Assembly (NCBI GenBank): GCA_963806185.1
Contig: CAWDXE010000007.1
Coordinates: 512,001 to 576,000, forward strand
Reading direction: 5' to 3'
From: an uncultured candidate division Zixibacteria bacterium
GTDB taxonomy: Bacteria; Zixibacteria; MSB-5A5; GN15; FEB-12
DNA: 64,000 bases
Shown here: piece after piece, positions 11,136-62,524 of the stretch
How the letters are laid out: each line of letters begins with the position of its first letter
Position numbering within the stretch: position 1 is the stretch's first letter
Notes under the pieces: generated by a model
Seen by the model: the letters and a program-made list of their open reading frames with translations, nothing else
Database searches by the model: none
What the model was told of the DNA's origin: nothing
Made by a program: the position numbers and the translations under genes

Positions 11136-11163
11136 TAAAGCGGGCTTCCTTTTACGCCGATAC
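11136..11163 (+). promoter_or_regulatory. Putative sigma28 (FliA/SigD)-type promoter
   Basis: TAAA-N16-GCCGATAC ending 46 nt before the ATG at 11210. Confidence 0.55.
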
Positions 11164-11209
11164 TACTTGTAGTAGTATATTGTTGGATCGACAGTTATGA
11201 AGGGTTGGT

Positions 11210-13378
11210 ATGATGGTACAAGGCCTCTTTAGAACGATTTCCTTAAAACTTCTGGTCGTAACAGCCATTGCTGCGGTGTGCTTCGCAGGCTGTGGCGCAA
11301 ACAAGAACTCAAGAATCGCTGAAGAGGGCGGCCGTCAACCATATGCCGCCGACAACTCATCAGACTCGGAATCCGATACCCTTCTGACTCCCCTGGGACA
11401 AATTCAGGACGATGACTCAGACGAGACGGCCGGGGCTGAGGCGGCTCGAAATTCTGAGCCGACCGTCAGTTCCAATCGCGAGGATCGTCAGGCCGACCAA
11501 TCCGTGGCGGCGAAACGTGTTCCGTCGGGGAAGAAATCGTCACGAACAGGGACGACTCCGGCGGAACAGGATTCGAACTGGTTCCAGCAGATCTTTGGAA
11601 CGACCAATAACGAGGATTCGGCGGCGGCCGTTGACGACGACATCTGGCGTCAGTTTGACTTGGCCGAGGAATACCACTCCATGGGGGTGACGGCCAATCG
11701 GGAAGGGGGCTGGGAAGAAGCCCAGTACTACTTCGAAAAGGCGCTGAAGATACTCGCCAATCTTGATGTCGAGACGGATACGATTCCAACGCCGGAAGCG
11801 GTGAAATACAGTGCCATCATCAACAACGTGGTGGCGGACTACCGGGTGACATTGCGATCGTTGGGTAAACTGGAAGACGACGCCGCGCCGTCGGTTCTGC
11901 TCGAGCGGTTCGGTGATCTGGAAGAAGGGCTGGAGAGTGACTCCATCCAGGTATTTAAGCAGGACATCGGGCCGGTGGTTCACGACCTCCCGATAGTGAT
12001 GAACGAGCGGGTGCGCAGTTCGATTGTTTATTTCCAGACGGTGGCGAAAAAGGCGTTCGCCCGCTACCTGTCGCGGATAAATCTCTACCGCCCGTTGTAC
12101 AGCAAGGTGCTGGCCGAATACGGCCTGCCCCAGGACCTGGTCTATCTGTCGCTGGTTGAATCGGGGTTTAATCCCAATGCGTATTCGTGGGCGCGAGCGA
12201 TGGGGTTGTGGCAGTTTATCGCGTCGACCGGCAGAATGTATGGACTGGAGCGCGACTGGTGGATCGACGAACGGAAGGATCCGACGAAATCGACCGATGC
12301 GGCGGCTCGTTTCCTCCGCGACCTCTACAATCAGTTTGGAGACTGGGAACTGGCCATGGCGGCTTATAACGGCGGACCGCGCCGGGTCGAGAATACAATT
12401 CGCGACCAGCGGACGCGCGATTTCTGGCGGATGAAGCTGAAACGTCAGACCATGGATTACGTACCGCTGATTTATGCCGCTGCTATTATAGCCAAGGAGC
12501 CGCAGAAGTACGGTTTCCGTGACGTAGCCTACGAACCGTCGCTCAAGTGGGAAGAAGTTACCATCAAGAAGTGTCTCGATCTCAAGACGGTGGCTGAGGC
12601 GATAGGGTGCGGGCTTGAAGAGTTGAAGGCGCTCAATCCGGAGCTGCTTCGCGGGTGCACGCCACCCGGCGGGCGGGAATATGTGCTGAAGATTCCGACC
12701 GGACGGAAGGACGTCTTCATGGCGTCGTACGAGGATATGGCGTCGCCGCGCGAGACGCAGATGGTGCGGCACACGATTCGTCAGGGAGAATCAGTCAAAG
12801 CGATCGCCTCCCGGTACGGTGTTTCTCAATACGCGCTGTTGGAGGCCAATCACCTCACCAAGAAGAGTAAAATCATCGCGGGTCGCGAGTTGATCATTCC
12901 GGTGCCGCTGGATCGATCGACACGGGTTGCGGCCAAAGCTAACGCTGACGCCGGGCCGTATGAATCATCAAATGGCGTGTATAAAGTTCGGTCGGGCGAC
13001 ACGATGTGGGACATCGCCAAGGCCTTCAATACCTCTATCGATGCCATCCGACGACTCAATTATCTGGAACGGGGCGCCCGGATTTACGTGGGGCAGAGTC
13101 TAAGAATCCCGGGTTCATCCGAAAAGTCCAAGGGTAAGAAGACCGGCAAGGTGATAGCGCCGACGTACGCGCAGTCGGGCGATGGGAAATCGGGCGACAA
13201 CGATTCCGGAGGCGGGTCGACCAAGGGTGTAATAGGCAAGCACACGGTGCGACGCGGGGACAATCTCTGGACGATCGCGCAGCGGTACAACACGACTGTT
13301 GACGCGGTTCGGGCGCTGAATGGATTGTCACGGAGTGCGCAGATCTATCCGGGTCAGGTATTGAAAGTTAAGATGTAA
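11210..13378 (+). CDS. MltD-like lytic murein transglycosylase lipoprotein with three LysM domains
   Basis: Lipobox FAGC; SLT motifs VESGFNP, AMGLWQFI and AAYNGG; LysM repeats HTIRQGES, YKVRSGDT and HTVRRGDN. Confidence 0.9.
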   Translation: MMVQGLFRTISLKLLVVTAIAAVCFAGCGANKNSRIAEEGGRQPYAADNSSDSESDTLLTPLGQIQDDDSDETAGAEAARNSEPTVSSNREDRQADQSVAAKRVPSGKKSSRTGTTPAEQDSNWFQQIFGTTNNEDSAAAVDDDIWRQFDLAEEYHSMGVTANREGGWEEAQYYFEKALKILANLDVETDTIPTPEAVKYSAIINNVVADYRVTLRSLGKLEDDAAPSVLLERFGDLEEGLESDSIQVFKQDIGPVVHDLPIVMNERVRSSIVYFQTVAKKAFARYLSRINLYRPLYSKVLAEYGLPQDLVYLSLVESGFNPNAYSWARAMGLWQFIASTGRMYGLERDWWIDERKDPTKSTDAAARFLRDLYNQFGDWELAMAAYNGGPRRVENTIRDQRTRDFWRMKLKRQTMDYVPLIYAAAIIAKEPQKYGFRDVAYEPSLKWEEVTIKKCLDLKTVAEAIGCGLEELKALNPELLRGCTPPGGREYVLKIPTGRKDVFMASYEDMASPRETQMVRHTIRQGESVKAIASRYGVSQYALLEANHLTKKSKIIAGRELIIPVPLDRSTRVAAKANADAGPYESSNGVYKVRSGDTMWDIAKAFNTSIDAIRRLNYLERGARIYVGQSLRIPGSSEKSKGKKTGKVIAPTYAQSGDGKSGDNDSGGGSTKGVIGKHTVRRGDNLWTIAQRYNTTVDAVRALNGLSRSAQIYPGQVLKVKM

Positions 13379-13483
13379 TCAATTGACGAGTTTTATGCTG
13401 GACAGGGATCGGCGACCGGCGCGATCTTGGCACGTTCAGAAATAACGGTTTCCGGCCTGACACTCAGGAAGAAATTGGGCACC

Positions 13484-14380
13484 ATGGCACGACGCCGCGA
13501 TCTGGTTATTGCAATTATCATTGGACTTGGACTTATCCTCGGTTTTGTCTTACTCGCCATTGTAACGGTCGGCCTCTTTGGTGAGAACGACGGCATGTCG
13601 TTTTCCGGTGGTGATATCGGCCTGGTGGAAGTATCCGGCACGATCGACGAAGCGAGCGGCCGGGAGTGGATTCACCAACTCGATAAATGGCAGAACAACG
13701 GGGCCATCAAGGCCGTGGTTGTTCACGTCAACTCACCGGGAGGTGAGGTTGCCATTTCCCAGGAATTGTACAGCGCGATACAGCGATGCAAGGCGGAGAA
13801 GCCGGTAGTCATATCGATGGCCGGCGTAGCTGCTTCCGGCGGGTACTACATCGCGTGTGCGGCGGACAAGATTGTTGCCAACCCGAGCACGATCACCGGC
13901 TCAATTGGTGTTATTTTCCAATTCCACACGTTCAAGGATTTGATGGGGAAGGTGGGGATTGGGACGGAGACGGTCAAATCAGGTGAGCTGAAGGATGTTG
14001 GATCTTATAGTCGCGAGATGACGGAGAATGAAGAGCTAATGCTTCGATCAGTGGTCATGGACACCTACGAGCAATTCGTCGAGGTGGTGGCTGAGAGTCG
14101 GGGCATGGACAAGGATGCGGTCTATCCTTTGGCTGACGGATCGATCTTTACCGGCTTGCAGGCCTATAACTTAGGCTTGGTTGACACGCTCGGGGGGCTG
14201 AAAGAGGCGGTTGATCTGGCCGGAAGTCTGGGGCATATCGAGGGTGAGCCGAAGCTGGTAATTCCGCCTAAGCGTGAGCCAGTCAACGTGTTCGACCTGT
14301 TGGGTGGGGCGGTGAAGACGTTCACGAAGTCGGTGGAATCCAACACCTCCGGACCCCGGTTGCTCTTTCTGTACCAATGA
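13484..14380 (+). CDS. sppA: Signal peptide peptidase SppA (36K type)
   Basis: VNSPGG, AASGGYYIA, TGSIGV, KSGELKD and GLVDTLG. Confidence 0.93.
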   Translation: MARRRDLVIAIIIGLGLILGFVLLAIVTVGLFGENDGMSFSGGDIGLVEVSGTIDEASGREWIHQLDKWQNNGAIKAVVVHVNSPGGEVAISQELYSAIQRCKAEKPVVISMAGVAASGGYYIACAADKIVANPSTITGSIGVIFQFHTFKDLMGKVGIGTETVKSGELKDVGSYSREMTENEELMLRSVVMDTYEQFVEVVAESRGMDKDAVYPLADGSIFTGLQAYNLGLVDTLGGLKEAVDLAGSLGHIEGEPKLVIPPKREPVNVFDLLGGAVKTFTKSVESNTSGPRLLFLYQ

Positions 14381-14563
14381 TTTGGCAGTCTCAAGCGGCC
14401 AAAAAAAATCGCAAAATAGTTGTTTTTTCTTTGTTTTTTCCTTTGCCGGTCATTATCTTCCCATCTGCCAAAGGCTTATCGAAACCAACCGTCAGCCTTG
14501 GCCCATGCGGGACATCTGAGGAAGAAAAGAAATGAGATATGATACTTGTCGAGGGAGGACACA

Positions 14564-14848
14564 GTGACTAAGGCTGATTTGGTCGAAAAGGTGGCCGAAA
14601 AGACCGGTCTAACCAGAACCGACGTGGCCGTGGTTGTGGACTCGTTTCTCGATGTGGTGAAGAAGTCGGTAGAAAGCGGCCACAACATCGAGATTCGCGG
14701 ATTCGGGACATTCAAGATCAAGTTGCGCAAGGCCCGCAAGGCACGGAATCCTCGCACGGGCGATGTGGTCCCGGTGCCGGATCGTAAAGTCCCGGTGTTC
14801 AAGCCGTCGAATGAGTTCAAGAACCTAATTACCAAGCTCTCGTTGTAG
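14564..14848 (+). CDS. hup: HU-family DNA-binding protein
   Basis: GGAGG RBS before a GTG start; TKADLVEKVA...IEIRGFGTF...ARNPRTG...PVFKP. Confidence 0.93.
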   Translation: MTKADLVEKVAEKTGLTRTDVAVVVDSFLDVVKKSVESGHNIEIRGFGTFKIKLRKARKARNPRTGDVVPVPDRKVPVFKPSNEFKNLITKLSL

Positions 14849-14865
14849 GGAAAAGCGGAGGATTG

Positions 14866-27387: not shown

Positions 27388-27419
<32 letters not shown>

Positions 27420-34082: not shown

Positions 34083-34832
34083 ATGCCGCAAACGCCGTTA
34101 CTTTACGCCCCGCCGGAAGCCGTACGCGATGATTTGATTTTGTTACCGAGCAGCGAGGCGCATCATGTGGCGACCGTGCTCCGCATGGGCATCGGCGAAC
34201 CGGTGACGGTTGTCGACGGGCTGGGGGTGGCCTACGACGGCGAAATCCGATCCATCGAAAAAAAGGCGGTTACCGTGGCCGTGCGGACAATCGTTCGCAA
34301 TTACGGCGAGCCGTTCGTACGGTTGACGCTGGCAGCGGGGATGTCGGCCGGGGAGAAGTTTGACACGGTTGTGGAAAAGGGGACGGAGGTCGGTGTCAGC
34401 CGATTCGTGCCGGTCATCTCTGAAAAGACGAAAGTGAGATTTGACGACGACAAGCGCGTCATCAATCGAGTTGAGCGTCTCGAAAAAGTCGCGCTGGCGG
34501 CGATGAAGCAGTGTCGACGATCGTATCGTCCCGATATTTCCCAGCCTCTCACGATGCGTGAATACCTGCAGGAGAGTGTTGACGCCGAGCTGAAATTGAT
34601 CTTTCATCCGTCGGAACGGGCAATGGCACTGTCCAAAGTGGTCCCCAAAGGAGCGCCGAAACGGGTGGCCGTGCTGGTAGGGCCGGAGTCCGGATTTTCC
34701 CCTGTCGAGGTCGAATTGGCGACGGAGTCCGGATTTCTGCCGGTACATTTGGGCCGACGAATCCTGCGGGCTGAGACGGCTGGTCCGGTGGCAGTGGCGC
34801 TGGTGATGTATCGCCTGGGCGAGTTCAGCTAA
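34083..34832 (+). CDS. rsmE: 16S rRNA m3U1498 methyltransferase
   Basis: HHVATVLRM, EKGTEVGV, VGPESGFS and LGRRILRAETA. Confidence 0.95.
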   Translation: MPQTPLLYAPPEAVRDDLILLPSSEAHHVATVLRMGIGEPVTVVDGLGVAYDGEIRSIEKKAVTVAVRTIVRNYGEPFVRLTLAAGMSAGEKFDTVVEKGTEVGVSRFVPVISEKTKVRFDDDKRVINRVERLEKVALAAMKQCRRSYRPDISQPLTMREYLQESVDAELKLIFHPSERAMALSKVVPKGAPKRVAVLVGPESGFSPVEVELATESGFLPVHLGRRILRAETAGPVAVALVMYRLGEFS

Positions 34833-34851
34833 AACCGTTCATTGCCGATAA
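34825..34851 (+). promoter_or_regulatory. Putative sigma28-type promoter of pilD
   Basis: TCAG-N15-GCCGATAA (perfect sigma28 -10), 10 nt before ATG 34862. Confidence 0.55.
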
Positions 34852-34861: not shown

Positions 34862-35644
34862 ATGGAATCATATCATCTGGTGCTGGTGGGGCTGTTTGGC
34901 CTCGTGATCGGTTCGTTCCTAAACGTGCTCATTTACCGCCTTCCGCGTAAGAAGGGGCTGGTGCTGGAGCGGTCGATCTGTCCTCACTGCTCGACCCAAT
35001 TGCGGTGGTATCACAACGTGCCGGTGCTCAGTTACCTGGCGCTTCGCGGAAAGTGCGCCTTCTGTCACAAATCCATTTCGCCAAGATACCCACTGGTGGA
35101 GCTGCTGAATGCCGTCGGGTATGTGTACTTCTTCCTGGGCTCAGGACCGACGCTCGGCTTCATGGTGGGCGCATTTCTGACGTCGGCTCTGCTGGTCGTC
35201 TTTTTCATCGATCTGGATTTTCAGATTATACCCGACGTGATCACGTTGCCGGGAATAGCTCTCGGCCTGCTGGTCTCGTTTCTGCCGAACGGCATCGGTA
35301 TCGTGCAGTCAATCATCGGCGTTCTCGTGGGTGGCGGATCACTCTACCTGATAGCCATGCTGGGCGACTGGCTGTTCAAGAAGGAATCAATGGGTGGCGG
35401 TGATATCAAGCTGACGGCCATGCTCGGGGCCTTCCTGGGATGGCAAAAGGTTGTGTTCATATTCATCGGTTCCGCGGCCATCGGGCTCGTGGTGTCGGTT
35501 GTTATCCTGGCTTTCTCGAAGGCGCTGCGGGAACATCGAATGATACCATTCGGCCCGTTCCTGGCGACCGCGGCCGTCATTGCCATTATTTATGGCGACC
35601 GGATTATCGAATTCTATATCTCCCACTTCCTGATGGGCAGATAG
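34862..35644 (+). CDS. pilD: Prepilin peptidase/N-methyltransferase (A24)
   Basis: GSFLNVLIYRLP, CPHC..CAFC, IDLDFQIIPD, MGGGDIKL and IPFGPFL. Confidence 0.95.
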   Translation: MESYHLVLVGLFGLVIGSFLNVLIYRLPRKKGLVLERSICPHCSTQLRWYHNVPVLSYLALRGKCAFCHKSISPRYPLVELLNAVGYVYFFLGSGPTLGFMVGAFLTSALLVVFFIDLDFQIIPDVITLPGIALGLLVSFLPNGIGIVQSIIGVLVGGGSLYLIAMLGDWLFKKESMGGGDIKLTAMLGAFLGWQKVVFIFIGSAAIGLVVSVVILAFSKALREHRMIPFGPFLATAAVIAIIYGDRIIEFYISHFLMGR

Positions 35645-35657: not shown

Positions 35658-35684
35658 TAAACGAGGACCTGTTTCTTCCGATAC
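35658..35684 (+). promoter_or_regulatory. Putative sigma28-type promoter of the histidine kinase
   Basis: TAAA-N15-TCCGATAC, 10 nt before ATG 35695. Confidence 0.5.
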
Positions 35685-35694: not shown

Positions 35695-37530
35695 ATGTTG
35701 AAGCAGGGTAAGAAGTTTGAGCACGAGGTTCACCTGGGATTTCTGGTGATCGTTTTCGTGTTGCTTCTGCTCAATGTCGTTGCCAACTACGTAGTCTACC
35801 GGGCGCGGGCGACGCAGCATGAAACGTGGTCATCCCAGTTCGGAACGGCGGCACTGGCGGCCAGCCGTGAAGTGGCACAGCAGTGGCCGGCTCAATTGAC
35901 CAATGAACAAATCGCCCGACTCACCGGACAGTATGAGTTGACCGGAATTGTGGTAGTGCGCTCCCAGCCTCAGGCGGACAGCCTGGAGGCGCGGCGGGAG
36001 TGGTTTGCCTCGGTCGTGTGGCAACTTCCTCATGACCAGGTGCCGCAGTTTGTCGAGAAGCTGATCCTGTCGGACTACTCGCGAGTGACCCGAGGGAGCA
36101 AGAATGAGTACTTCTTTGTGTATCCGACGGCCGGCGCAGGGGGGAGCCTCGTAATTCTCTCCGCGAATATCCCAGAGTTGGCGTTTCTTGATGATTCGGC
36201 AAACGTGCTTTTGTATTTCGGTCTCGGAGCGCTCGCCCTGGTGACCCTCGTGTATCTGGTGCTGTCGCGCTATATCTTTTCGCCGTTCAGACGGATCAAG
36301 GCCGAAGCGCTGAAAGCCGGGAGGAGTGTGGATCTGGGCGATGACGACGCCGAAGCGCTGGTGGCGGAGTATCGTTCGATCATCAGGGAATTGCAGCGAA
36401 ACGAGACGGAGCTGCGGCGGCTCAATGACGAAATTACCCGGCGCGCCGACTCGCTGGAACATCTCCATCAATCCATGTTGCGGTCTATGCAAATCGGATT
36501 AGTGACGCTGAACGCCAGGGAGACCGTGATCGAGGTAAACGAGGTAGCGGCGAGGATGCTGGGGACCGATGACAGTGCCGTGGGCAGACGTTTCGAGGAC
36601 GTAGTGCCAAACCTGGAGCCGCTTCACAAATCTGCCCGGCAGGCGTTACAGGCGGGTGTCGTTGGCGGGTACCGCGAGCTGGCCGTGGGAGCGCACATGG
36701 ACCGTCGAACGGCGACGTGGGGAGTGACGCTTTCACTGATAAAAGATCAGGATGACAAGCTGATGGGGCTGTCAATCTGGATGGCCGATATCAGCGAACT
36801 GGTTCAACTTCGCGGCGAAGTCGAAAGCAAGAACCGGCTGGCGGCATTGGGCGAGATGGCCTCCGGGCTGGCGCACCAATTGCGAAATTCACTGGGGGCG
36901 ATTTCCGGTTACGGGACCTTGGTGAAGAAGCGGCTGGTGAAGGCGGAGATTCCGGTTGACCAGGCGGAGTCGCTGCTGGACGAATCGCGCCAGGCGGAGA
37001 GCCTGATCAGTCGCTTTCTGACCTTTGCCCGACCGTTCGACTATTCACCAACAGGGGTGAGGCTCGATGATCTGTTGGTTCAGATTGTGGAATCGTTCAC
37101 TGTCCGTGATGACTGTCGGTTAGTGACAGTGGAGACGGATCTCAGGGCAAAGGCGACTATCGCGGCTGACGCCCTGCTGCTGAAGCAGGCGATTGGGAAT
37201 CTTCTGGACAATGCGGCCAACGCCTACGCCGATCGTCGAGGTGTGATCCGCGTCACGTCAACGCTGCAGAACGGCGGCGTGTCGATATGTATCGCGGATG
37301 AAGGCGAGGGAATCGCCGCTGACAAACTGGACCGGATTTTCACGCCGTTTTACTCCTCACGCTCGCTGGGGACCGGACTGGGGTTACCACTGGTGCGCAA
37401 GATCGTCGATCTGCATCAGGGTCGAATCACGGTTGAGAGCGCAGAAGGCCGGGGCACGCGCTTCACCCTGATATTCCCTGTGGCCGAGTATAGCGAATCG
37501 GTTTCGCCTTCCCTTCATTCTACGCGCTAA
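35695..37530 (+). CDS. Membrane PAS-domain sensor histidine kinase (NtrB/PilS-like)
   Basis: Two TMs, a PAS-like region, H-box LAHQLRNSL, N-box NLLDNA, and G-boxes DEGEGI and GTGLGL. Confidence 0.92.
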   Translation: MLKQGKKFEHEVHLGFLVIVFVLLLLNVVANYVVYRARATQHETWSSQFGTAALAASREVAQQWPAQLTNEQIARLTGQYELTGIVVVRSQPQADSLEARREWFASVVWQLPHDQVPQFVEKLILSDYSRVTRGSKNEYFFVYPTAGAGGSLVILSANIPELAFLDDSANVLLYFGLGALALVTLVYLVLSRYIFSPFRRIKAEALKAGRSVDLGDDDAEALVAEYRSIIRELQRNETELRRLNDEITRRADSLEHLHQSMLRSMQIGLVTLNARETVIEVNEVAARMLGTDDSAVGRRFEDVVPNLEPLHKSARQALQAGVVGGYRELAVGAHMDRRTATWGVTLSLIKDQDDKLMGLSIWMADISELVQLRGEVESKNRLAALGEMASGLAHQLRNSLGAISGYGTLVKKRLVKAEIPVDQAESLLDESRQAESLISRFLTFARPFDYSPTGVRLDDLLVQIVESFTVRDDCRLVTVETDLRAKATIAADALLLKQAIGNLLDNAANAYADRRGVIRVTSTLQNGGVSICIADEGEGIAADKLDRIFTPFYSSRSLGTGLGLPLVRKIVDLHQGRITVESAEGRGTRFTLIFPVAEYSESVSPSLHSTR

Positions 37531-39791: not shown

Positions 39792-39818
39792 TAAGCGTCT
39801 ATGGGATTTTGCCGATAC
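39792..39818 (+). promoter_or_regulatory. Putative sigma28-type promoter
   Basis: TAAG-N15-GCCGATAC, 41 nt before ATG 39860. Confidence 0.55.
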
Positions 39819-39859: not shown

Positions 39860-41890
39860 ATGAGATTTGAGCAAGCGTACTGGGCAGCGGCCGTATTCCT
39901 GGTAACGGCGCTCGTGCTGATCCTGAGATTTCGCAGACAGATTTCGGAGATAGATCGTCGCAGTTATGCCTTAATTGTCGCCGGCGTAGGGCTGCTTCTT
40001 CTGGCGTCGATAATGCAGATCGGCCGTGATTACCTGCCGGTTACCGCCGCGACTATGATGCCGCCGGCACTGTTTGTCCAACTGGTGTGGGGTATCATCG
40101 GCATCACGGGCCTTTCGTTAATGCTGATCGGCGTGACGAACTGGGTGCCGCTGGTGCGACGTCATCGCCAATTCAACGATGAGCGGTTCGGGCGGCTGAA
40201 TCTGCTTCGCCATCTGGAGCAGTTACTCACGGTGGAGCATCGCCTCGACGTCATTCTGACCAACACCCTCGAGAGTATTATCACACAGTACAATTTCTCT
40301 GCCGGATCGGTGCACAAGATAAGCGCCCGCGGCCGGAGAGTGCAGTTGACCGGGGCGAAGGGGATGTCATTCGAAGATGAGACGGAACTGCTGACGATGG
40401 CTTTCGAAGAGGATCGTTGGCTCGAATCCCGATCGAAACAATCGGCGCAGACGGTGACCGGTTTTTCCGGATTTCCCGAGGCTCTCGGACTACCCTGGAA
40501 GTGCCTGCCGGTGCTGGTCGATGATCGCGCCGTGGTCGTGTTTCTGTTCTGGGTTGATCGCTCATCATCTTTCACCGGTGAAGACGCACAGATCTTTTCG
40601 ATCATCGGAGACATTCTCTCTCGCAAGATCGCGGCCGATAGAGAGAGCTTCGCGCATCTCAATGCGATTTCCCGATTGTCATGGCGCAACCGGTTGGACG
40701 GCTGCTATAGCGGACGGCGTGACCTCAAGGAGAATCTGAAGGCGCTGGTCGAGCGACTGAGAGAGCAGCTCACGGTGGAGATTGCGTCACTGACCATTTT
40801 GCGCGATGATCGATCGGCCGCCCGGGCGACGGTCACGGCGAACGGCGCCTCGCTGATAGAACCGCGCGTCGAAGTGGGCGGTACCCGATCGCTGACGAGG
40901 CACGTGCTGTCGGGTGGTGAACCGGTGCTCATCACGGATACGAGAAAGAAAATGACGCTGGCGATTGAATCAGCCATGGGCGGCGAGTCGGTGCGATCCT
41001 TGATCGCGCAGCCTATCTCGGTGGATGCCGAGCCGTGCGGCATGCTCGTACTGGCCTCCACTGAGACGGATCGGTATACAAAATCGGACATTGGCATGCT
41101 CTCGACAATCGGGCCGGTGCTTGCGATGATGATTCGGGACTGGCGGCGCGCCGAGCGAGAGAGCAGAATTGTGGCGGCGGTCGGGCGGCTGGTGGCCGCG
41201 ACTGACGTGGCCGTCGTGGACAGCGAAACTGATCCGGTGTTCGGCGAAATGGCCGAGACGCTGCACGATATGCTCGGCATCGCGGCTGTGCGGATCATGA
41301 CGGTGAAAGACAATCGGGAAGCGCTGGAATCGCAGTCGTTGTATACTTCCGGGGATCTGAGGCTGGCTTTGGGGGCGACTGAAAGCATCGACATGGCATT
41401 GCTGCCGGCACATGGTGATGTGGTGAAGCGCGCGGCCATGCTGACCGCCATCCCGGCGATGCGGATCGACAGCGTCGAGGCGCGGCAGGTATACGGGTGC
41501 GAGGTTCAGCTGGCCCGAATCGAACCGGTGTTGTTGCATGGACGGGTGATTGCCCTGATCTCAGTCGGTGTTCAATCAGCCGTGCTTCCGGCCCACACCG
41601 ACAAATGGCTTCATATTGTGTCGCGGCTTCTGACCATTGCCGTGCTCACGGCCCGAAGACCGGGAGCGGGCAAATTGTCAATGTCTGATCGGATTCTGCG
41701 TGCCAAAAGCGGCGAACTGCGCATGCGCAGCAAGATGAAATCGTCGCTTACAGGGATCCTTGGATCACTGGAGATACTCAAGTCACAGTCGGGTCAGGAA
41801 GAGGGGAATCTGGAGAGGTACCTGTCGATTATTGATCGATCGGCCCGTCGACTCCAGACCTACCTGGAGGGGGCGCGAGAGACTGAGTAG
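39860..41890 (+). CDS. Membrane multi-GAF-domain protein ending in a degenerate HisKA-like helix pair
   Basis: Three N-terminal TMs, GAF motifs (VRSLIAQPI..CGMLVLAS..YTKSDIGML) and C-terminal MKSSLTGILGSLEIL...YLSIIDRSARRL. Confidence 0.75.
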   Translation: MRFEQAYWAAAVFLVTALVLILRFRRQISEIDRRSYALIVAGVGLLLLASIMQIGRDYLPVTAATMMPPALFVQLVWGIIGITGLSLMLIGVTNWVPLVRRHRQFNDERFGRLNLLRHLEQLLTVEHRLDVILTNTLESIITQYNFSAGSVHKISARGRRVQLTGAKGMSFEDETELLTMAFEEDRWLESRSKQSAQTVTGFSGFPEALGLPWKCLPVLVDDRAVVVFLFWVDRSSSFTGEDAQIFSIIGDILSRKIAADRESFAHLNAISRLSWRNRLDGCYSGRRDLKENLKALVERLREQLTVEIASLTILRDDRSAARATVTANGASLIEPRVEVGGTRSLTRHVLSGGEPVLITDTRKKMTLAIESAMGGESVRSLIAQPISVDAEPCGMLVLASTETDRYTKSDIGMLSTIGPVLAMMIRDWRRAERESRIVAAVGRLVAATDVAVVDSETDPVFGEMAETLHDMLGIAAVRIMTVKDNREALESQSLYTSGDLRLALGATESIDMALLPAHGDVVKRAAMLTAIPAMRIDSVEARQVYGCEVQLARIEPVLLHGRVIALISVGVQSAVLPAHTDKWLHIVSRLLTIAVLTARRPGAGKLSMSDRILRAKSGELRMRSKMKSSLTGILGSLEILKSQSGQEEGNLERYLSIIDRSARRLQTYLEGARETE

Positions 41891-54518: not shown

Positions 54519-55826
54519 TCATTTCAGAATATGCGGCGTAATCAGGATGATGAGATCGGTCGTCGTCTTTTCTTTGGACTTATTGGTGAACAGCAGCGAA
54601 CCGAGTATCGGAATATGGCCGAGCAGCGGTACGCGTTGGATGCGCTCGATCTGATTTTCCTTCAATAATCCGCCCAGAGCTATTGACTCACCATCTTTCA
54701 CCGTAATTCTCGTTTTCAGCGACCGTTCCGTCGTGATCGGGCGTTGATTGTCGATCGGTCCGGTATAGCCGATGATGTCCTCGATGTGCGGGGCGACTTC
54801 GAGAGTGAGCGTGCCTTCTTCATTGATGCGCGGCGTCACCTTAAGCGAGATGCCTACCTCTTCGTCCTGGAACGAGACGATGTCCTGAATGACCGCTCCT
54901 TCGCTGAAGCGATTGAGCGTCTGGATCGGTATGACCGTGGCGATTTTGATTTCGGCTTCCTGGTTTTCGGTAGTGGTGATTTTCGGGTCGGAAATCAGTT
55001 TGCTGTTGCCGTCACGACTCAGCAGATTCAGCACGAGGTTCATTTGCTGGATTGAGAGTTTGCCCCAGGTCCAGCGTTTTTGCTCGAGGTCAAAAGCGCC
55101 GAGATCATTCTGTGAAGTCGTGGTGGTGGACGTTTCGGTGGAGGTCGTACCCGCTACGTCGCCGCCGCGAGTGGTGACGGTACTGGGCCAGAGGAACCCC
55201 AGGTCGCGATCTGAATCGAGCTGGGTTTCAATGATCTTGGCTTCAATCAGGATCACTCGTTCGGCCACGTCAAGTTGAGAGATGACTTTCAAGGCTTGTT
55301 CGATGACCGCCGGGTAGTCGGTAATGATGAGGCGGTTGGCCTGATAGGTGCTTTTCGCCGCTTGCGCGTCGGCGCCTTCGGCGACCTTGTCCAAGACAAC
55401 CACTTTGCCGCCGGCCGACAGGCACGACGTCAACGCTTTAGCGACCATGGTAGGGTCGGCGTAACGGAGCGTGATAACACGCGACGACAATTCGGCGCCC
55501 ATGCCCTCAGCGGCGCTCTTGATGATGATCACGTCACCTTTCAAATAGTAGGTCATGCCGTTGGCCGACAAAATTGCGTCAAGGGCAGTGGCCAGGTCGA
55601 CACTGTCGAGGCGAAGGGTGACCTGCTCTTTCAGGTCCGGTGAGAAGACCATGTTCAAGCTATGTTGCTGAGCGATTGAACTCAGTACCGAGGTCAGCGG
55701 TACCCCTTTGAGATCGAGGGAAAGAGTCTTGCCGTCGTCCAGCGGTCCCGCGGCTGCGGTGTCAAATTGCATTGCTGAAAAGAAGAGTATCAGCAGAGGC
55801 GCGAGTAGGATTATGGTGCGTTTCAT
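54519..55826 (-). CDS. Secretin (PilQ/GspD family)
   Basis: STN/N0-like N-terminus, ILIEAKIIE, GISLKVTPRI and GGLL..RVPLLGHIPILGSLF..LIILITPHI. Confidence 0.92.
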   Translation of the reverse strand: MKRTIILLAPLLILFFSAMQFDTAAAGPLDDGKTLSLDLKGVPLTSVLSSIAQQHSLNMVFSPDLKEQVTLRLDSVDLATALDAILSANGMTYYLKGDVIIIKSAAEGMGAELSSRVITLRYADPTMVAKALTSCLSAGGKVVVLDKVAEGADAQAAKSTYQANRLIITDYPAVIEQALKVISQLDVAERVILIEAKIIETQLDSDRDLGFLWPSTVTTRGGDVAGTTSTETSTTTTSQNDLGAFDLEQKRWTWGKLSIQQMNLVLNLLSRDGNSKLISDPKITTTENQEAEIKIATVIPIQTLNRFSEGAVIQDIVSFQDEEVGISLKVTPRINEEGTLTLEVAPHIEDIIGYTGPIDNQRPITTERSLKTRITVKDGESIALGGLLKENQIERIQRVPLLGHIPILGSLLFTNKSKEKTTTDLIILITPHILK

Positions 55827-55838: not shown

Positions 55839-56312
55839 TTAGCGCGGGGTGACAGTCAATTGTTTACCGGCCGCTTCCAGCGTCACCGACGACTTGGTTA
55901 TCGCTATGACCCTGGCATTGTCAATGGTTTGGCCAACTGTGACCGCTTTGCCGTTTATGTATGCAATCGGATTGGTATCGTTGTAGAGTATGCCGCTGAC
56001 GATCCAGCCGGCTGACTTTGGGGCGGTTGGCGCGTCTCCAGCTTTGAGCCGGCGCTCGGTGCGCTGTGGTAGAGGACGTGAGCCGTAGCGAAAGGGATCG
56101 CGGCCCCATGGAGCGGCCAGGCGGGCAGGTCGATTATGGACGGTCGCATTGACTGCCGGCGATGGAATCGCAGCCGCAAGTGAGGCGACGGCCGCCGGCT
56201 GGTTGTTCACGGTCGGAGCGGCCGGCTCATTTGTCTGCCAATTGTACAGGGCATAGAGCAAGGCCAGGGGTAGAGTCAGGAATACCAGCTTCTTTCGGAG
56301 GGAAGCACTCAT
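55839..56312 (-). CDS. PilP/GspB/MshK-like accessory protein
   Basis: TM, WGRDPF and VSGILY..IAYINGKAVTVGQTID; ATGA-coupled within the operon. Confidence 0.7.
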   Translation of the reverse strand: MSASLRKKLVFLTLPLALLYALYNWQTNEPAAPTVNNQPAAVASLAAAIPSPAVNATVHNRPARLAAPWGRDPFRYGSRPLPQRTERRLKAGDAPTAPKSAGWIVSGILYNDTNPIAYINGKAVTVGQTIDNARVIAITKSSVTLEAAGKQLTVTPR

Positions 56313-56869
56313 GACGATCCCTCCGACTCGCCCAGTAAGGCGCGGAAGCCGAAGGTGCATTGTAGACGATCGGGTTCGGCGTTTTCGTCGAGAATCTGAC
56401 AGGCGGTGGCTCCGCGGAAATAGGGAGCGGTTTCCAGGTTGAGCACGAAGCGCGAGAAGCTGTAGTAGTCGCCCCGCAGTTTCATCGTGATGTTCAGGAA
56501 TGCCGGATCACCCTGATTCTGCACTGATCGATTGAGTGTCAGCAGTTCCTCAATGGGCGGCGTGATGGCAGTGACGGAGAGGCCCTGCAAGCGTGCGTCG
56601 GCCTCAAGTTTGTCAAACAGCTTCGAGTAAGTCGCCTTTGCGTACAGACTGGAGCGTTGGTGCCGCTTTTGTTATCCAAATCCCCTTGGCCATCATGAGA
56701 GTCGGGAGCTGCGCGATCGTGGAATTATAGTCGGCGATTTCGGCCTTGGCCGCGGCAGTTTGCGCCGAAGTATCGGCCATCTGTCGGGTGAGTGGCATCC
56801 AGGCGAAGAAGAGCCAGGCGAGAGTCAGGCCGACGGCGCCGATTATGATGGTGGTAGTTTGTGTTTCAT
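56309..56869 (-). CDS. PilO-like protein (frameshifted)
   Basis: The pieces MKHKL.., TIIIGAVGLTLAWLFFAWMP, ..QGLSVTAITP and ITMKLRGDYYSFSRFVLNLE lie in different frames. Confidence 0.65.
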
Positions 56870-58515
56870 AGCCCGGCCTTCATTTCCAGTTCAAAGTCGA
56901 GCAGCATCACGCCGTCCACGTTGCGCGGCGCATAGTGGATGATGTGTGACGTCGTCGAAAAAGTCAGATCCGCCAAGATTCTCGACAAACTCAGCCAGAA
57001 CGACTTCCGGGGGCACGCCGTCAGCCAGCACGGAGCCGTAGATAGAGAAATTACGGCCATGGTCGGCGACTGCTGTCCTATCTGGACGAAAGCGAACGGC
57101 CGGAGGCGTGATCGTGGTGAGTTCTTTGAGTACCACCCGAGATAGCTGGGCTGGGCTTTGGCCTGTTCGAGGTAATTCTGGCTGGCGGCGATCTGCAGTT
57201 TTATCGTTGATAACTGCTGTACAGATCAGACGCCTTGAAGTCGGCCAGCCTGCGTGATGAAGCTCGGCTAGTTGCTTGTGTTCGTTCGCGAGCAGGATAG
57301 ATCGCTGGGCCCAGAAGAGCGCCATGACGGCCAGGCAGGCGGCGATGCCGGCTGATGATACGCCTTTCCAGTCGAATGACGCCGCAGAGAGTACCTTTGT
57401 CTGCGGTCGGGCAGGAGGTCCGGCATTACGGCGGTGTTGACCGCGGCGGCGACGACGGGACAAGCAGACGCCGAGCGGCGTTTCGGTCTCGACGGGGTGG
57501 TTTTTGAGGAATTTCAGCTGCTCGACGGGAAAACGCTCTGAATTCCAGTTCAAAGCGGTTGTCGAGAAGCTCGATGAGGTCGTCAGAGTAGGCCAGATCG
57601 CCATAGATGTAGAGCTGGCTGCCGAACCGGCTGGCAAATTGCCCGGAATAATAGTCGAGCGAGTTCTGAATCTCGGAGGCCAGTGATTCAGCAAAGTACT
57701 CGAACATGGTTGGATCGGTTCGGTTGGCCAGGAAGGATGAACCGACCGACAATATGTGGGAAAACTCGAGGTTTGATCCCTTGAAGTACGATATCTTCGG
57801 AGCGCGTGCGTTCGATGTTTATGAGGGCATAATTTGCCTGTGCCGAGAAATCAGGCAGTTGCCGCATTAATTGCCCAATGACATCCTGTGCCAGGACGCA
57901 CGCCTGGACAGGCAGGCCCAACGTCCTAAAGGGCTGCAACCGGTCGTCGATGAGCTGCCGAGTTGCACCGACCAATGAGATGCGGAATTTCTTCGACTCG
58001 GCAGCAGCGTATTTCCATGTGACGCGATGGTCAAACCAGCAGTCGGTGATCGGAAAGGGAAGAGTCTTGCGCGCTTGGAAATTGACGGAGGCGGCCAAGG
58101 CTTTCCGGCCGAGGGCCGGGAGAGTCAGTTGGCGAAAAGCGGTCTCAGGACCGCCAATGGCAATCGTGATCATCGATGGACGGCCAAGTTCCTGAACAAT
58201 CTCGTCCACGGTCCGGGTGATAAAGGCTTGGCGCAATTCCGAAGTGGCTATCGCCGCGGACGGAAAGTAGATCTTGCGCACGTCAATGATTTTGCTTCGC
58301 TTTCCGAAACGGGAGGCCATAGCCACCTGAATGGCCTGTTCGTCGACGGCGACAGCCATCTGGCAGCCGAAAAGAAGAAGATGTCGCGGGTTCACCGGAA
58401 CCTCAGGCGTGCCGCCATTCGGTTCGGCTGGGCCGTTCAAATCCCCATGGGGAACGGAGGCCGCATCTTCGGTCGGCCGTATCCGCGAGAGAAGGTGTTT
58501 AATAGCCGTTGTCAA
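56866..58515 (-). CDS. PilM(-PilN)-like fusion protein (multiple frameshifts)
   Basis: PilM-like FRQLTLPAL..KTLPFP, ALINI, EIQNSLDYY and LYIYGD; then a TM and PilN-like LKELTTITPPAV..IYGSV..FVENL, across shifted frames. Confidence 0.65.
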
Positions 58516-58979
58516 AACGTCACAATAATGCTGTCGCTGCCGCCGATCGAAATGATGCGGCGACTGGCGGGTTGATAGACGTAATTGACGCCCCAGGCGT
58601 CCTTCAAGTATTCCCCCCCGGAACTATCGACATACGGTCCGTTCCAGCCGAGACGAGAGAGCCGGTTGTAGGCGGACAACGAATCCGGCCGACGGGCGAG
58701 ATCCCGCAACTGAGCGGGGAGGAATCCGACGTCGCCCTCGAAGCCGCGATCGATGTACTCGCCGCCGGCGACGACGGCCGGATTGCCGATGATGGCACCC
58801 TTGAGGGAATTCAATTCCTCTCTGGTCGCCGTCACTTTTGAACTCGAAAAGAGGGTTCCGAATTTGGGCAAGGCGACGGTCGCAACTATGCCGAGAGCCA
58901 CAATTACGATAACAAGCTCGATCAGGGTGAAACCTCCCTGGTCGAGCTTGTCAGCGACTTGACGTCGACCGTGTTGCAT
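58512..58979 (-). CDS. Type IV pilin / GspG-like pseudopilin
   Basis: G|FTLIELVIVIVALGIVATVALP; W.GPY...DAWG..YVY GspG-like tail. Confidence 0.9.
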   Translation of the reverse strand: MQHGRRQVADKLDQGGFTLIELVIVIVALGIVATVALPKFGTLFSSSKVTATREELNSLKGAIIGNPAVVAGGEYIDRGFEGDVGFLPAQLRDLARRPDSLSAYNRLSRLGWNGPYVDSSGGEYLKDAWGVNYVYQPASRRIISIGGSDSIIVTF

Positions 58980-58996
58980 ATTGCTGCTGCGCCGGT

Positions 58997-59428
58997 CTAG
59001 AAGTTGTTCTCACCCGCGACGTTGGTGTTGGGCCATATTTCGCCGGTGGAAGCCAGGTAAGCCCAGCCGCCGCGCGCGCCGACAACGACGCCCTTCGTGA
59101 CGCCGGTGACGATTGAATCAGGAGCGTTGGCTTCGCTCTGATACGGATTCGGCGGAAGGGACTGCTGCATGACCGTGCCGCTGGTCCGGAGTTCCGCAAC
59201 TGTCGGCCAGGTGGCCGTGCCGGTGGTCACCGCCTTGTTGGCGTAGAAGATGGTGATGCCCGAACGGAGCGCGCCGAGCGAACCTTTGCAGGCAGCTTCT
59301 TTCGCCTCGCCGGTAATGTCCTGGTACTTGGGAATTGCGACGGCCGCGAGAATGCCGAGCACGACAATGATGATGACGAGCTCAATCAACGTAAAACCGC
59401 GCGACCCATTCAGTTTATTAGACCGCAT
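58997..59428 (-). CDS. Type IV major pilin (MshA/PilA-like)
   Basis: GGAGG RBS and RG|FTLIELVIIIVVLGILAAVAIPKY. Confidence 0.9.
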   Translation of the reverse strand: MRSNKLNGSRGFTLIELVIIIVVLGILAAVAIPKYQDITGEAKEAACKGSLGALRSGITIFYANKAVTTGTATWPTVAELRTSGTVMQQSLPPNPYQSEANAPDSIVTGVTKGVVVGARGGWAYLASTGEIWPNTNVAGENNF

Positions 59429-59483
59429 GTCGTCCTCCATAGTCCGCAAGAGGGGCTATAATTGTTTATTGTTCTCCATGAGA

Positions 59484-59511
59484 GTATCGGCCTGATCCCG
59501 TATTCTCTTTA
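59484..59511 (-). promoter_or_regulatory. Putative sigma28-type promoter of the pilin genes
   Basis: Minus strand TAAA-N16-GCCGATAC in the pilC-pilin intergenic gap. Confidence 0.55.
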
Positions 59512-59517
59512 GGGCGG

Positions 59518-60732
59518 CTATTTGCTGAAGACGTGGATTAAGTTCCACATTGGCAGGAAGATGGCCAGAGCCAGAATCAGGACAAGGGCGCCGAGAACGA
59601 GAGTCAGAATAGGCTCGATAATAGCCGTCAGGTGACGCGAGGTATACATCACCTGCTTGGTATAGTGGTCGCCGGTCTCCTTAAGCATCGTCTCCAGATT
59701 TCCGGATTCGAGACCGATGGCGATCATTTGCAGTGCCTGCTGCGGGAAGTGCCTGAATTGACCTTCGACCTCGTTCAATTCCTTGCCACGGCGGAAAAGT
59801 TCATCCAGGCTTTTCACCTCGAGCGCGAAGGCCGTGTTCCTGAGTGTTGCGGTGAGGATATCCAGACAACGAATGACCGGCAGACCGGCGTTGAAGAGGA
59901 TTCGGAACATCAGGCAGAAGCGAGCGGTGTTGCCCCGAATGACGAGGTCTCCCAGAACCGGTAACGTGAGCATCTTGCGATCCCACCACAGTCTGCCTTT
60001 GGGCGAGGCGAGCAGTCGGCGAAAACCGTAAAAAATCAGTCCGAGGGCCGCCAGCATCACCATCCAGTAAGTGGAAGCAAAGTGACTGACGGCAATGATC
60101 AGGCGCGTCGGCAGCGGCAACTGGGATCCGAACGCGGCGTAAAACGAGACGAAACGGGGGACGACGAAGATCATAAGGACGGCAATGGCCGCAAAGATGA
60201 CGCTCATGACAATCAAGGGATACCGCACGGCCGACTTGATTTCGCGGGTCAACTCGAGTTCGCGTTCCAGCATGAGCGCCATTTCATCGAGGGTCATATC
60301 GAGCTTGCCGGACTCTTCGCCGGCGGCAATACTGGCGGTATACACCTTGTTGAAGTACTGCGGATGTTCCGCCATGGCTTCGGAGAGGGACTTGCCCGAT
60401 TGCACGGCCGTTCGGATAGTTTCGATGGTTTGATTAAACGGGCCGATGGCACGGCCGATCCGGACGATCGAGAGGATGCGAAGGAGCGGGATGCCGGCTC
60501 GATACATGGTAGCCACGGAATTGGTGAACATGATGAGCAGTTCGTAATCCTGCTTTCGGCTAAATGCGAAAACCGAAAATGGCCTTGCGTCGCGGACGGC
60601 CGTGATGGACACAGGCAGGAGCTGCTGGCCGCCCAGATACTCTTCGACCTGTTCCGACCCTACGGCGGTGATAGTGCCGGTCCGCTCGCGTCCCTCGGCA
60701 GTAACCGCCCGGTACTTAAATCGGGTCTGCAT
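59518..60732 (-). CDS. pilC: Type IV pilus/T2SS inner-membrane platform protein (PilC/GspF/MshG)
   Basis: AGIPL, GKSLSEAM, AGEESGKL, SAVRYP, LPLPTR and IEPILT..AIFLPM. Confidence 0.9.
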   Translation of the reverse strand: MQTRFKYRAVTAEGRERTGTITAVGSEQVEEYLGGQQLLPVSITAVRDARPFSVFAFSRKQDYELLIMFTNSVATMYRAGIPLLRILSIVRIGRAIGPFNQTIETIRTAVQSGKSLSEAMAEHPQYFNKVYTASIAAGEESGKLDMTLDEMALMLERELELTREIKSAVRYPLIVMSVIFAAIAVLMIFVVPRFVSFYAAFGSQLPLPTRLIIAVSHFASTYWMVMLAALGLIFYGFRRLLASPKGRLWWDRKMLTLPVLGDLVIRGNTARFCLMFRILFNAGLPVIRCLDILTATLRNTAFALEVKSLDELFRRGKELNEVEGQFRHFPQQALQMIAIGLESGNLETMLKETGDHYTKQVMYTSRHLTAIIEPILTLVLGALVLILALAIFLPMWNLIHVFSK

Positions 60733-62458
60733 GAGTCACCTCGGTCGAGCGCGGCTGGCCGTAGCTGGCAAAGTAATCTTCGATGTTGGATGTTTCCTTG
60801 AGGAGTTCTTCGAGACAGACGCGCCCCTCGTTCACCGATTGCAGTCCGGCTTCGAAGAGTGGAAGGTACCCGTGGCGGCGGCCCACATCGCGAATAAGGC
60901 GAAGCGAGCTATTGCTGAGAATCAGTTCGGCAATCGGCTGGCTGATTTCCAGATATTCAAAAACGCCGGTCATCCCGGAGAAACCGGTGCCCTTGCATTG
61001 CGCGCAGCCGATCCCTTTGTAAAACGTGATCGTGCCGGCGATTTCGCGGATGCCGGCGCGATCGAGTAAGGTTTCCGATGGGGTGTAGGTTTCGTTGCAG
61101 TGAGGGCAATTGGTCCTCACCAGGCGCTGCGCAAGCACCCCTTTGATGGCCGCGGCCAGAAGGTACGGCTCGACACCCATGTCGATAAGGCGGGTGATGG
61201 CGGACGGTGCATCGTTGGTGTGAATGGTCGAGAAGACCAGGTGTCCGGTGAGGGCCGACCGGATGGCCATCCGGGCCGTTTCCGTGTCGCGGATTTCGCC
61301 GATCATGACGACATCGGGATTCTGGCGGAGAATGGCACGCAGGGCAGAGGGGAATGTCAGGCCGGCTTTCTCGTTGATCTGAATCTGGTTGATCAACGGA
61401 AGGGAATACTCCACCGGGTCTTCGACGGTAATGATGTTCTTCTCTATGGAATTGATTTCCTGCAGAGTGGTGTACAGGGTCGATGTCTTTCCGCTCGAGG
61501 TCGGTCCCGAGATGAGGATGAGTCCTTCCGGTTTGCGAATGATATGGCCCCAAAATTCAATCAAACGTTCGGTGAAGCCGAGCTGGCGGAAATTCAGGCG
61601 CAGATTGCGGCGATCGAGAATGCGGATGACGATTTTCTCGCCGTGGATGGTCGGCAGGGTGGAAATGCGAAGGTCGATCGGGGTGCCTTCGACTTTCATG
61701 ATGAAGCGACCGTCCTGCGGCAGTCGTTTCTCCGAGACGTCGAGATCGGCGGCGATCTTGATGCGCGAGATGACTTCGCTCTGCATCGATTTGGGAGGCG
61801 CGGCTTCCTCGCGCATGACGCCGTTGATCCGGTAGCGGATACGCAGCGTGGCCTCATCCGGCTCGATGTGAATGTCGCTGGCCCGTTCGGATACCGCCCG
61901 CGCGATAATCAGGTTGACCAATTTGATGATCGGCGACTCAGCTTCGAGTTTTTCCTCGATCGCTTCCTTCTCGGCCAGATCAATTTCGGTGGTGTCACGA
62001 TGTCCGCCGATGAGATGGTTCAGGGAGTCGGCCACCGAGTAGTACTGATCAATGGCGTGTCGTATCTCCTGACTGGTGGCGATGGCGCGCTTGATATCGC
62101 TGCGGGTCTGGTATTTGATTTCGTCGATAGCGATAATGTTGAGCGGATCGGCCATGGCGAGCGTCAGCGTATTGCCGATGGCGAAGATGGGGATGACGGT
62201 ATAGCGCCGCGCGACGTCGACACTGACGCGCTGAATGACAGCGGGATCGATGACCATCTGGGCGAGTGAAACCTTGGGAATGTCCAGGCGTTCGCTGACG
62301 GTGTCCATCAACTGATCTTCACTGATCAGCCCGCTCTCGACGAGAATCTGTCCCAATCGCTTGCCGGTCGCGGCCTGAAGTCGCAATCCTTCTTCAAGTT
62401 GATTCGAGGAGATCAGGCCCCGGTCGACGAGCAAATCACCGATCTTTTTTCTTGCCAT
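60716..62458 (-). CDS. pilB: Type IV pilus assembly ATPase (PilB/GspE/MshE) with N-terminal MshEN motifs
   Basis: KIGDLLVDRGLI..LRLQ..RLGQILVESGLI; ASDIHIEP, PQDGR, GPTSSGKT, EDPVE, LRQNPD, GEIRD, TGHLVFST and a tetracysteine motif. Confidence 0.92.
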   Translation of the reverse strand: MARKKIGDLLVDRGLISSNQLEEGLRLQAATGKRLGQILVESGLISEDQLMDTVSERLDIPKVSLAQMVIDPAVIQRVSVDVARRYTVIPIFAIGNTLTLAMADPLNIIAIDEIKYQTRSDIKRAIATSQEIRHAIDQYYSVADSLNHLIGGHRDTTEIDLAEKEAIEEKLEAESPIIKLVNLIIARAVSERASDIHIEPDEATLRIRYRINGVMREEAAPPKSMQSEVISRIKIAADLDVSEKRLPQDGRFIMKVEGTPIDLRISTLPTIHGEKIVIRILDRRNLRLNFRQLGFTERLIEFWGHIIRKPEGLILISGPTSSGKTSTLYTTLQEINSIEKNIITVEDPVEYSLPLINQIQINEKAGLTFPSALRAILRQNPDVVMIGEIRDTETARMAIRSALTGHLVFSTIHTNDAPSAITRLIDMGVEPYLLAAAIKGVLAQRLVRTNCPHCNETYTPSETLLDRAGIREIAGTITFYKGIGCAQCKGTGFSGMTGVFEYLEISQPIAELILSNSSLRLIRDVGRRHGYLPLFEAGLQSVNEGRVCLEELLKETSNIEDYFASYGQPRSTEVTHADPI

Positions 62459-62496
62459 TACTGCAGCGCCAACTATGGTTACAGGTTGTTCCTCCT

Positions 62497-62524
62497 GTAT
62501 CGGTAGGGGCAGTTGACCCCTTGA
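62497..62524 (-). promoter_or_regulatory. Putative sigma28-type promoter of the pilB operon
   Basis: Minus strand TCAA-N16-ACCGATAC, 38 nt before ATG 62458. Confidence 0.5.

Follow-up and report, generated by a model that had tools for sequence, protein, structure and literature searches.

In the 64,000-nt stretch of an uncultured Zixibacteria bacterium analyzed here (the window; G000:C7:512001-576000), six bipartite, sigma28-type sites precede genes for type IV pili, the prepilin peptidase PilD, a lytic transglycosylase, a PAS histidine kinase, and a GAF-domain protein. Judged from sequence and conservation, these sites are probably promoters read by the single FliA of this genome, which would switch late flagellar and chemotaxis genes, both pilus systems, PilD, and signaling genes as one motile-phase program. 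The window belongs to an assembly of 3.65 Mb that is 82% complete. Sites were scored with two matrices. The pil-trained matrix was derived from 104 pilB, pilin, pilD, and kinase sites of relatives, with the window genome left out, and the flagellar-only matrix was trained on 56 fliC and fliA sites and no pil sites. The six sites are as follows.

11136..11163, plus strand: sigma28-type site before the mltD-like gene (15.2 bits with the pil matrix, 14.6 bits with the flagellar-only matrix)
34825..34851, plus strand: sigma28-type site before pilD (21.3 bits; 10 nt from the ATG)
35658..35684, plus strand: sigma28-type site before the PAS histidine kinase gene (16.9 bits; 10 nt from the ATG)
39792..39818, plus strand: sigma28-type site before the GAF protein gene (17.4 bits)
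59484..59511, minus strand: sigma28-type site before the pilins, internal to the operon (14.3 bits; 18.3 bits with the flagellar-only matrix)
62497..62524, minus strand: sigma28-type site heading the pilB operon (15.2 bits)

A first-pass annotation of the window had reported the pattern T(A/C)A(A/G)-N15/16-(G/T/A)CCGATA(C/A) at these six places. All six were recovered with the same coordinates and strands, and they are the only matches in the window; 300 dinucleotide-shuffled versions contained 0.23 matches on average and 2 at most. The gene labels assigned at the same time were borne out by SLT and LysM domains, peptidase A24 (PilD), a PAS-HisKA-HATPase kinase, a GAF protein, two N-methyl pilins, and a PilB/GspE-type ATPase. 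The -10 box ended 46, 10, 10, 41, 55, and 38 nt before the called start codons for mltD, pilD, kinase, GAF protein, pilin, and pilB, respectively, some starts and distances being approximate, as genes were called with a simple, purpose-made caller in a frameshift-rich assembly. Genome-wide, the pattern occurred 48 times, and 29 matches were located no more than 150 nt from a start on the same strand, compared to a background of 6.6% of positions. Spacers of 15 and 16 nt accounted for 31 matches (19 near starts) and 17 matches (10 near starts), whereas each other spacer length from 8 to 25 nt yielded 4 to 15 matches, with 0 to 2 near starts. Bipartite TAAA-N15-GCCGATAA-type sites that lie upstream of genes, on the coding strand and at fixed spacing, are the mark of a sigma28 regulon.

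One of 14 matches to sigma region 2 in the genome is a FliA/WhiG-type factor (G000:C4:17957-18829). It scored 263 bits against TIGR02479, with a cut-off of 189.6, and its closest solved relatives are 6pfv/6pfj and FliA 6pmi. The gene order, flhA-flhF-flhG-fliA, was read from translations, and flhA was confirmed separately. The flagellar inventory further comprises flagellin, FliD, FliS, FlgK, FlgN, CsrA, FliW, two MotA proteins, CheW, and five matches to methyl-accepting chemotaxis proteins (MCPs), with csrA-fliW adjoining flgKL; the organism is flagellated. An FlgM-like gene (102 aa) with a sigma28-type site of its own is located behind fliC-fliD-fliS, and relatives show the same placement, before HDOD/thrS. 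Sigma54-like sites were detected before flgB and flgF, and a sigma54 activator gene precedes motA. For comparison across the phylum, we used a sample of 161 genomes (160 that are at least 85% complete plus the window genome), which falls in one class; 158 of its 159 FliA-positive genomes contained a single FliA match. A third, short flagellin-family gene (254 aa; L339, G000:C3:291889-292653) lies far from the flagellar clusters and has counterparts of about 260 to 290 aa in most relatives.

The first-pass annotation had assigned this regulon to pili and not to flagella. Its sigma28-type nature is sustained by the sigma factor and the conserved sites, the regulon being far larger than the six genes. 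The exclusion of flagella agrees with relatives that lack flagellin but does not hold in the window genome, where the same promoter type was found before flagellin (11.7 bits, at 192 nt), fliA (15.3 bits), flgN (14.1 bits), the flgM-like gene (11.4 bits), cheW (15.3 bits), the second motA (13.9 bits), and in the MCP region (about 13 bits). With the pil-trained matrix, a fliC site was detected in 25 of 29 relatives, at 181 to 219 nt and never on the reverse strand, and 27 of 29 had one before fliA, in most cases at a distance of 17 nt. The converse test represents the strongest support for a shared code. With the flagellar-only matrix, the best upstream match was the window site in all six cases (10.9 to 18.3 bits), and at 8 bits or more this matrix recovered sites before pilB in 22/29, pilin in 25/28, pilD in 21/29, and the kinase gene in 12/24 relatives; reverse-strand controls gave 3, 1, 1, and 2, respectively, and pilB homologues of other phyla 5/69. 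A single recognition code fits flagellar and pilus sites alike.

The two classes of sites are not identical. Sites before fliC favor a TAAAG-type -35 box and a -10 box of GCCGAT(T/G), and pil sites combine a looser -35 box, T(A/C/G)A(A/G), with the full GCCGATAA. In the window genome, the flagellin -10 box ends differently (GCCGATGA), which is why the first-pass pattern misses this gene. If the strict pattern, which also misses flgN, flgM, and motA, were taken at face value, sigma28 would serve pili and sensors only, and flagella would depend on sigma54 or a different sigma factor; the difference in -35 and -10 style and the sigma54-like sites before flgB and flgF would fit such a division. 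We consider it very unlikely, given the fliC sites of the relatives, the position of fliA in a flagellar cluster, and the finding that a matrix trained on fliC and fliA sites alone retrieves the pil sites. Alternatively, FliA might read the flagellar sites only, with the pil sites read by another sigma factor (an RpoD-like second match or an extracytoplasmic function [ECF] sigma factor) or bound by a transcription factor. The classes do differ at the -35 box and at position 7 of the -10 box. A further TIGR02479 match, lower in score and below the cut-off, occurs in most relatives, and families f7 and f15 show GCAAG or CAAAG as the -35 box of pilB alongside an unchanged TAAAG at fliC. However, pil sites fit the sigma28 consensus -10 box better than the fliC site does, they are strand- and spacer-specific, and they persist together with FliA in flagellin-less genomes, where FliA would otherwise have few targets. 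This arrangement is quite unlikely, and joint reading of both classes by FliA is preferred.

The variation in f7 and f15, which are related families (L270-L274, L390), extends to the pilin promoter. Co-variation of sigma factor and promoter was considered here and rejected as evidence: pilB has GCAAG in f7 and CAAAG in f15 next to an unaltered fliC box, yet f7 FliA differs only by Y112F, K254R, and A274S, and region 4 of f15 FliA contains no such change. The fliC leader of about 190 nt contains short blocks with GGA cores that are conserved across relatives (L062, L049-L078). Together with the nearby csrA and fliW, these blocks look like CsrA control.

Within the same family and order, the motif also precedes the orthologues of pilB, the pilin gene, pilD, and the kinase gene. 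At 11 bits, the pil matrix detected sites in 27/29 relatives of the same order for pilB, 28/28 for pilin, 27/29 for pilD, and 18/24 for the kinase gene, counts that are circular; the reverse-strand controls gave 1, 2, 0, and 1, respectively. Two further loci are independent of the training set: the mltD site was present in three of five relatives, and the GAF site was found at 19 bits in both of the orthologues that were identified among five genomes. The pil matrix detected sites before 7 of 69 pilB homologues from other phyla, with 3 on the reverse strand. The first-pass annotation had named three outcomes that would speak against it, namely, no positional enrichment, no sigma28-family gene, and no motif before orthologous genes. 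None of these was observed.

Both pilD and the kinase gene stand behind housekeeping genes, namely, hrcA, grpE-dnaK-dnaJ (read from translation), prmA, and rsmE. The site before pilD, whose -35 box overlaps the last codons of rsmE, was located 7 to 11 nt before the ATG in 26 of the 27 relatives that have it, and a Shine-Dalgarno match was found in 2 of 30. Transcription from sigma28 promoters starts 5 to 7 nt behind the -10 box. Since this box lies 7 to 11 nt from the ATG, the pilD mRNA is predicted to be nearly leaderless. Internal promoters for pilD and the kinase gene behind the heat-shock operon, as proposed in the first-pass annotation, are supported by this conserved distance and should be regarded as predicted.

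To estimate the size of the regulon, 2,189 upstream regions were scanned with the pil matrix. Sites of at least 14 bits numbered 67 (6.4 in shuffled sequences), those of at least 12 bits 102 (17.8), and those of at least 11 bits 134 (30.4). Shuffles are the fairer control, as reverse-complement counts are inflated by divergent genes. These values suggest a FliA regulon of about 60 to 100 promoters. Most target genes of the 74 top-scoring sites, about a tenth of which are expected by chance, were scanned against Pfam. Among them are pilM at the head of pilMNO-secretin, a further pilin, a number of kinases and response regulators, one GGDEF protein, one PilZ protein, two HDOD proteins, hemerythrin, Lon, a signal peptidase, an ECF sigma factor, and some housekeeping genes. 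The pilM site (16.8 bits) and a pilT site (14.0 bits) belong to a second pilus system, whose PilB passes the TIGR02538 cut-off in five of five relatives. The pilT site is located inside a pilB-pilT-pilC cluster that adjoins Roadblock and small-GTPase genes, which we take to be MglAB-like. With sites on genes of both pilus systems and before the single pilD, both systems and their shared peptidase are covered.

FliA was found in 159 of the 161 genomes (the two without a match are both fragmented), PilD in 157, flagellin in 133, FlhA in 134, and a match to the FlgM-like profile in 145. Flagellin is missing from 28 genomes: all those of families f6, f10, f11, f12, f16, and f17, five of f7, and one of f14. 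FliA was kept in 26 of these and an FlgM-like match in 21, with E values of about 1e-4 to 1e-8 in the profile search. The pilB-linked pilT site was retained in all nine flagellin-less genomes for which the gene was available (12.6 to 18.5 bits; G104 not covered), and the pilM site in six of the seven that were checked. In 19 flagellin-less fliA loci, flhF and flhG were not found beside fliA; instead, DUF2225, PilZ, or kinase genes follow. FlgN, CsrA, FliW, and FlgM-like genes often come next, before HDOD and thrS and without fliC or fliD, and fliA adjoins pilMNOQ in three f16 genomes. In a midpoint-rooted, single-gene tree of 45 manually selected FliA proteins, the branching agrees with the families; five changes of the flagellin-less label are required, at least four of them forced by well-supported branches. 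In 151 of the 161 genomes, a strict form of the motif was more frequent than its reversed control.

In the flagellin-less lineages, the FliA circuit likely serves pili and signaling alone, and the flagellar switch would have outlived the flagellum as a pilus switch. Could FliA and the FlgM-like protein instead be leftovers there, or be kept for targets other than pili, with the losses partly reflecting incomplete assemblies and the window regulon as described? The genomes are metagenome-assembled, the motif is not in excess genome-wide in f10, f11, and f12, and the FlgM-like proteins range from about 57 to 145 aa (that of G071 being a 57-residue C-terminal piece), with none found in f12 genomes. 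On the other hand, whole families lack flagellin and, except for two of the four f11 genomes, FlhA, and the flagellin-less set includes the one- and two-contig genomes G070, G104, and G055. Structural genes are gone from between retained neighbors, FliA remains 62 to 70% identical, and the pilT site is maintained in all nine genomes. This alternative is quite unlikely in view of these observations.

A bolder reading can be put forward tentatively and with rather less than even confidence. FliA might act as a phylum-wide master switch for surface appendages, kept with FlgM through at least four flagellar losses, in which FlgM release would be independent of the flagellum (by proteolysis or by a partner switch via FlgN, PilZ, or the PAS-GAF kinase beside fliA) and would time type IV pilus synthesis. 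In most cases there would be no export gate, and genus g88 would be an intermediate with a gate stripped down for FlgM alone. In this genus (L425:23-12356 of G133:C139; L426 of G107:C246; L459-L466), a stripped flagellar export gate stands directly before fliA. It consists of a 425-aa N-terminal part of FliF fused to the middle domain of FliG, of FliH, I, J, M, N, O, P, Q, and R, and of FlhA. FlhB (257 to 258 aa) ends before the NPTH site in both genomes. No flagellin match was found in g88, nor were flgB, flgC, and fliE found before fliF in L463. The gate could be kept for FlgM or another substrate.

In the window genome, fliA is followed by a DUF2225 gene and three PilZ genes (L337, G000:C4:18845-27149). 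In nearly all of the flagellin-less genomes inspected, some of these genes remain with fliA, and they may regulate it.

Several observations count against a single FliA-FlgM switch of this breadth. With the genome 82% complete, a second sigma28-like gene could be missing. The same-order counts obtained with the pil matrix are circular in that pilB, pilin, pilD, and kinase sites trained it. At 11 bits, other orders yielded only 11/20 for pilB, 7/19 for pilin, and 9/40 for pilD (the pilB and pilD loci having been chosen by hand to cover the families), in part owing to drift of the -35 box. The site before the first motA is weak (8.5 bits). A Shine-Dalgarno match was found before pilB in 1 of 30 cases, so its absence at pilD alone is no proof of a leaderless mRNA. 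In f2, f10, f11, and f12, a strict pattern showed no overall genome-wide excess over its reversed control, and the FliA regulon may be small in these families. Seven of the 28 flagellin-less genomes had no FlgM-like match. Members of the FlgM-like family matched PF04316 in 19/24 and TIGR03824 in 14/24 cases at E values of up to 0.1 (best, 1.5e-6 and 5.8e-7, respectively), all ten scanned singly remained under the Pfam cut-off, and the match to FlgM chain 9wsf_B from the PDB was weak (E value of 0.27).

How the switch might operate can be outlined from gene order and promoter positions. The sigma54-like sites before flgB and flgF would start the basal body, and the export gate of the basal body would secrete FlgM and thereby free FliA. 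FliA would amplify itself and transcribe fliC, pilB-pilC, the pilins, pilT, pilMNOQ, and pilD, with the pilins boosted by their own internal promoter. Despite their place behind heat-shock and methyltransferase genes, pilD and the kinase gene would gain near-leaderless transcripts of their own. The PilB ATPase of the window would add a predicted cyclic di-GMP (c-di-GMP) input at the protein level. Several lineages would have lost the flagellar structural genes and kept FliA, the pilus promoters, and usually the FlgM-like protein.

The FliA-FlgM pair is the canonical checkpoint of late flagellar gene expression in E. coli, Salmonella, and B. subtilis (SigD), and a sigma54-dependent middle tier is known from the Vibrio/Pseudomonas type. 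The window genome resembles the former in its placement of fliA behind flhA-flhF-flhG, its FlgM-like gene, and the sites before fliC, flgN, flgM, and chemotaxis genes, and the latter in its sigma54-like sites before flgB and flgF; CsrA-FliW beside flgKL adds to the likeness. It differs in that the regulon reaches pili and dozens of nonflagellar genes and that relatives lacking flagellin, and in most cases FlhA, have kept the circuit.

Control of pili by flagellar-type sigma factors has precedents. In Bdellovibrio bacteriovorus, TTAAG-N16-CCGATA was reported in 92 of 140 attack-phase promoters (PMC3627812), and FliA (Bd3318) drives flagellin and a Tad pilus operon together, with pilA described as not FliA regulated (PMC5430801). 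The motif is nearly the same as that found here, the regulon is likewise large, and FliA acts on both flagellin and a pilus operon. The pili are of the Tad type (type IVb) there, whereas MshE-type and type IVa systems and PilD are concerned here; Bdellovibrio has a predatory, biphasic cycle, and the window organism is known from its genes alone (a regulon of about 60 to 100 sites; FliA in 159/161 genomes). In Actinoplanes missouriensis, type IV pili and flagella are both reported to be transcribed by WhiG/FliA sigma factors of the flagellar clade (PMC8325347, PMC12871210), of which there are several paralogues, compared to one FliA and one FlgM-like gene here. FlgM is absent from almost all actinobacterial flagellar clusters (PMC8325347, PMC12871210). 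The closest parallel to the flagellin-less relatives is WhiG-RsiG of Rubrobacter radiotolerans, with sigma28-family promoters in a type IV pilus cluster and before c-di-GMP enzymes (PMC8325347); pilus control under RsiG has been predicted for other actinobacteria (PMC8325347, PMC12871210). The anti-sigma factor there is the c-di-GMP-armed RsiG, and here it would be FlgM-like. An RsiG-type partner was sought with the pattern E(X)3S(X)2R(X)3Q(X)3D in the 3,159 called proteins of the 82% complete, frameshifted genome; the only match was a 1,225-aa protein, and no small protein was found.

On its own, the window is a further member of this known kind of FliA-pilus control. In the open-access literature (supplements excluded), we found no publication on such control in Zixibacteria, and repeated retention of FliA and an FlgM-like protein after flagellar loss was not found in print. 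For a phylum that is widespread and uncultured, the results amount to a regulatory map, with a predicted motility or dispersal program that would produce the swimming and pilus machinery together. The losses, being repeated, provide a natural experiment with replicates on the reuse of a flagellar checkpoint once the flagellum is gone. Among the sigma28 factors known to control pili, those of Bdellovibrio and Actinoplanes occur together with flagella and that of Rubrobacter works with RsiG; a FliA-FlgM pair without an export gate raises the question of what frees the sigma factor.

The genes of the window that are concerned are listed below.

11210..13378, plus strand: MltD-like lytic transglycosylase with LysM repeats (SLT and LysM; NF008050 below cut-off)
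34083..34832, plus strand: rsmE, the last housekeeping gene before pilD (profile match)
34862..35644, plus strand: pilD prepilin peptidase, the single match of the genome (A24_N_bact and Peptidase_A24)
35695..37530, plus strand: PAS-HisKA-HATPase sensor kinase (domain matches)
39860..41890, plus strand: GAF-domain protein (weak C-terminal HisKA match; N terminus looks hydrophobic in translation)
54519..55826, minus strand: secretin (PilQ/GspD/MshL-like) at the end of the pilus operon (all models below cut-off)
55839..58515, minus strand: PilM-like and following assembly genes (in pieces here; whole in relatives, at 538, about 187, and about 156 aa)
58512..58979, minus strand: second pilin (N_methyl motif)
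58997..59428, minus strand: first pilin, likely the major one (profile and N_methyl matches)
59518..60732, minus strand: PilC/GspF platform protein (profile match)
60716..62458, minus strand: PilB/MshE-type extension ATPase with an N-terminal c-di-GMP-binding (MshE-related) domain (NF053729, 67 bits; cut-off, 38)

The window ATPase remained under the PilB equivalog cut-off (TIGR02538, 592 versus 676 bits), whereas its MshE-related c-di-GMP domain passed, and the pilus operon is best called MSH-like. Its closest named relatives (57 to 73% identity) are, among the top 10 records, four from Zixibacteria/Zixiibacteriota, five from uncultured Ignavibacteriales, and one labeled 'bacterium'. The broken PilM-like region likely results from assembly indels. 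Frameshifts relative to relatives were seen in this region (55839-58515) and in flhA, flhB, fliR, and the C3 pilB cluster of the same genome (G000); sequencing indels in the assembly, rather than decay, are the most likely cause. The first 421 residues of a 502-aa open reading frame divergent from pilB (window 62736-64000) matched nothing in NCBIfam or Pfam. Outside the phylum, four gammaproteobacterial loci (L252, L254, L256, and L257, two of them labeled Thiohalophilus) carry sigma28-type sites of 12.6 to 16.8 bits, 41 to 55 nt before PilB/MshE-like genes, and L252 and L257 have one before a pilin gene too. These are possibly a separate case of the same wiring.

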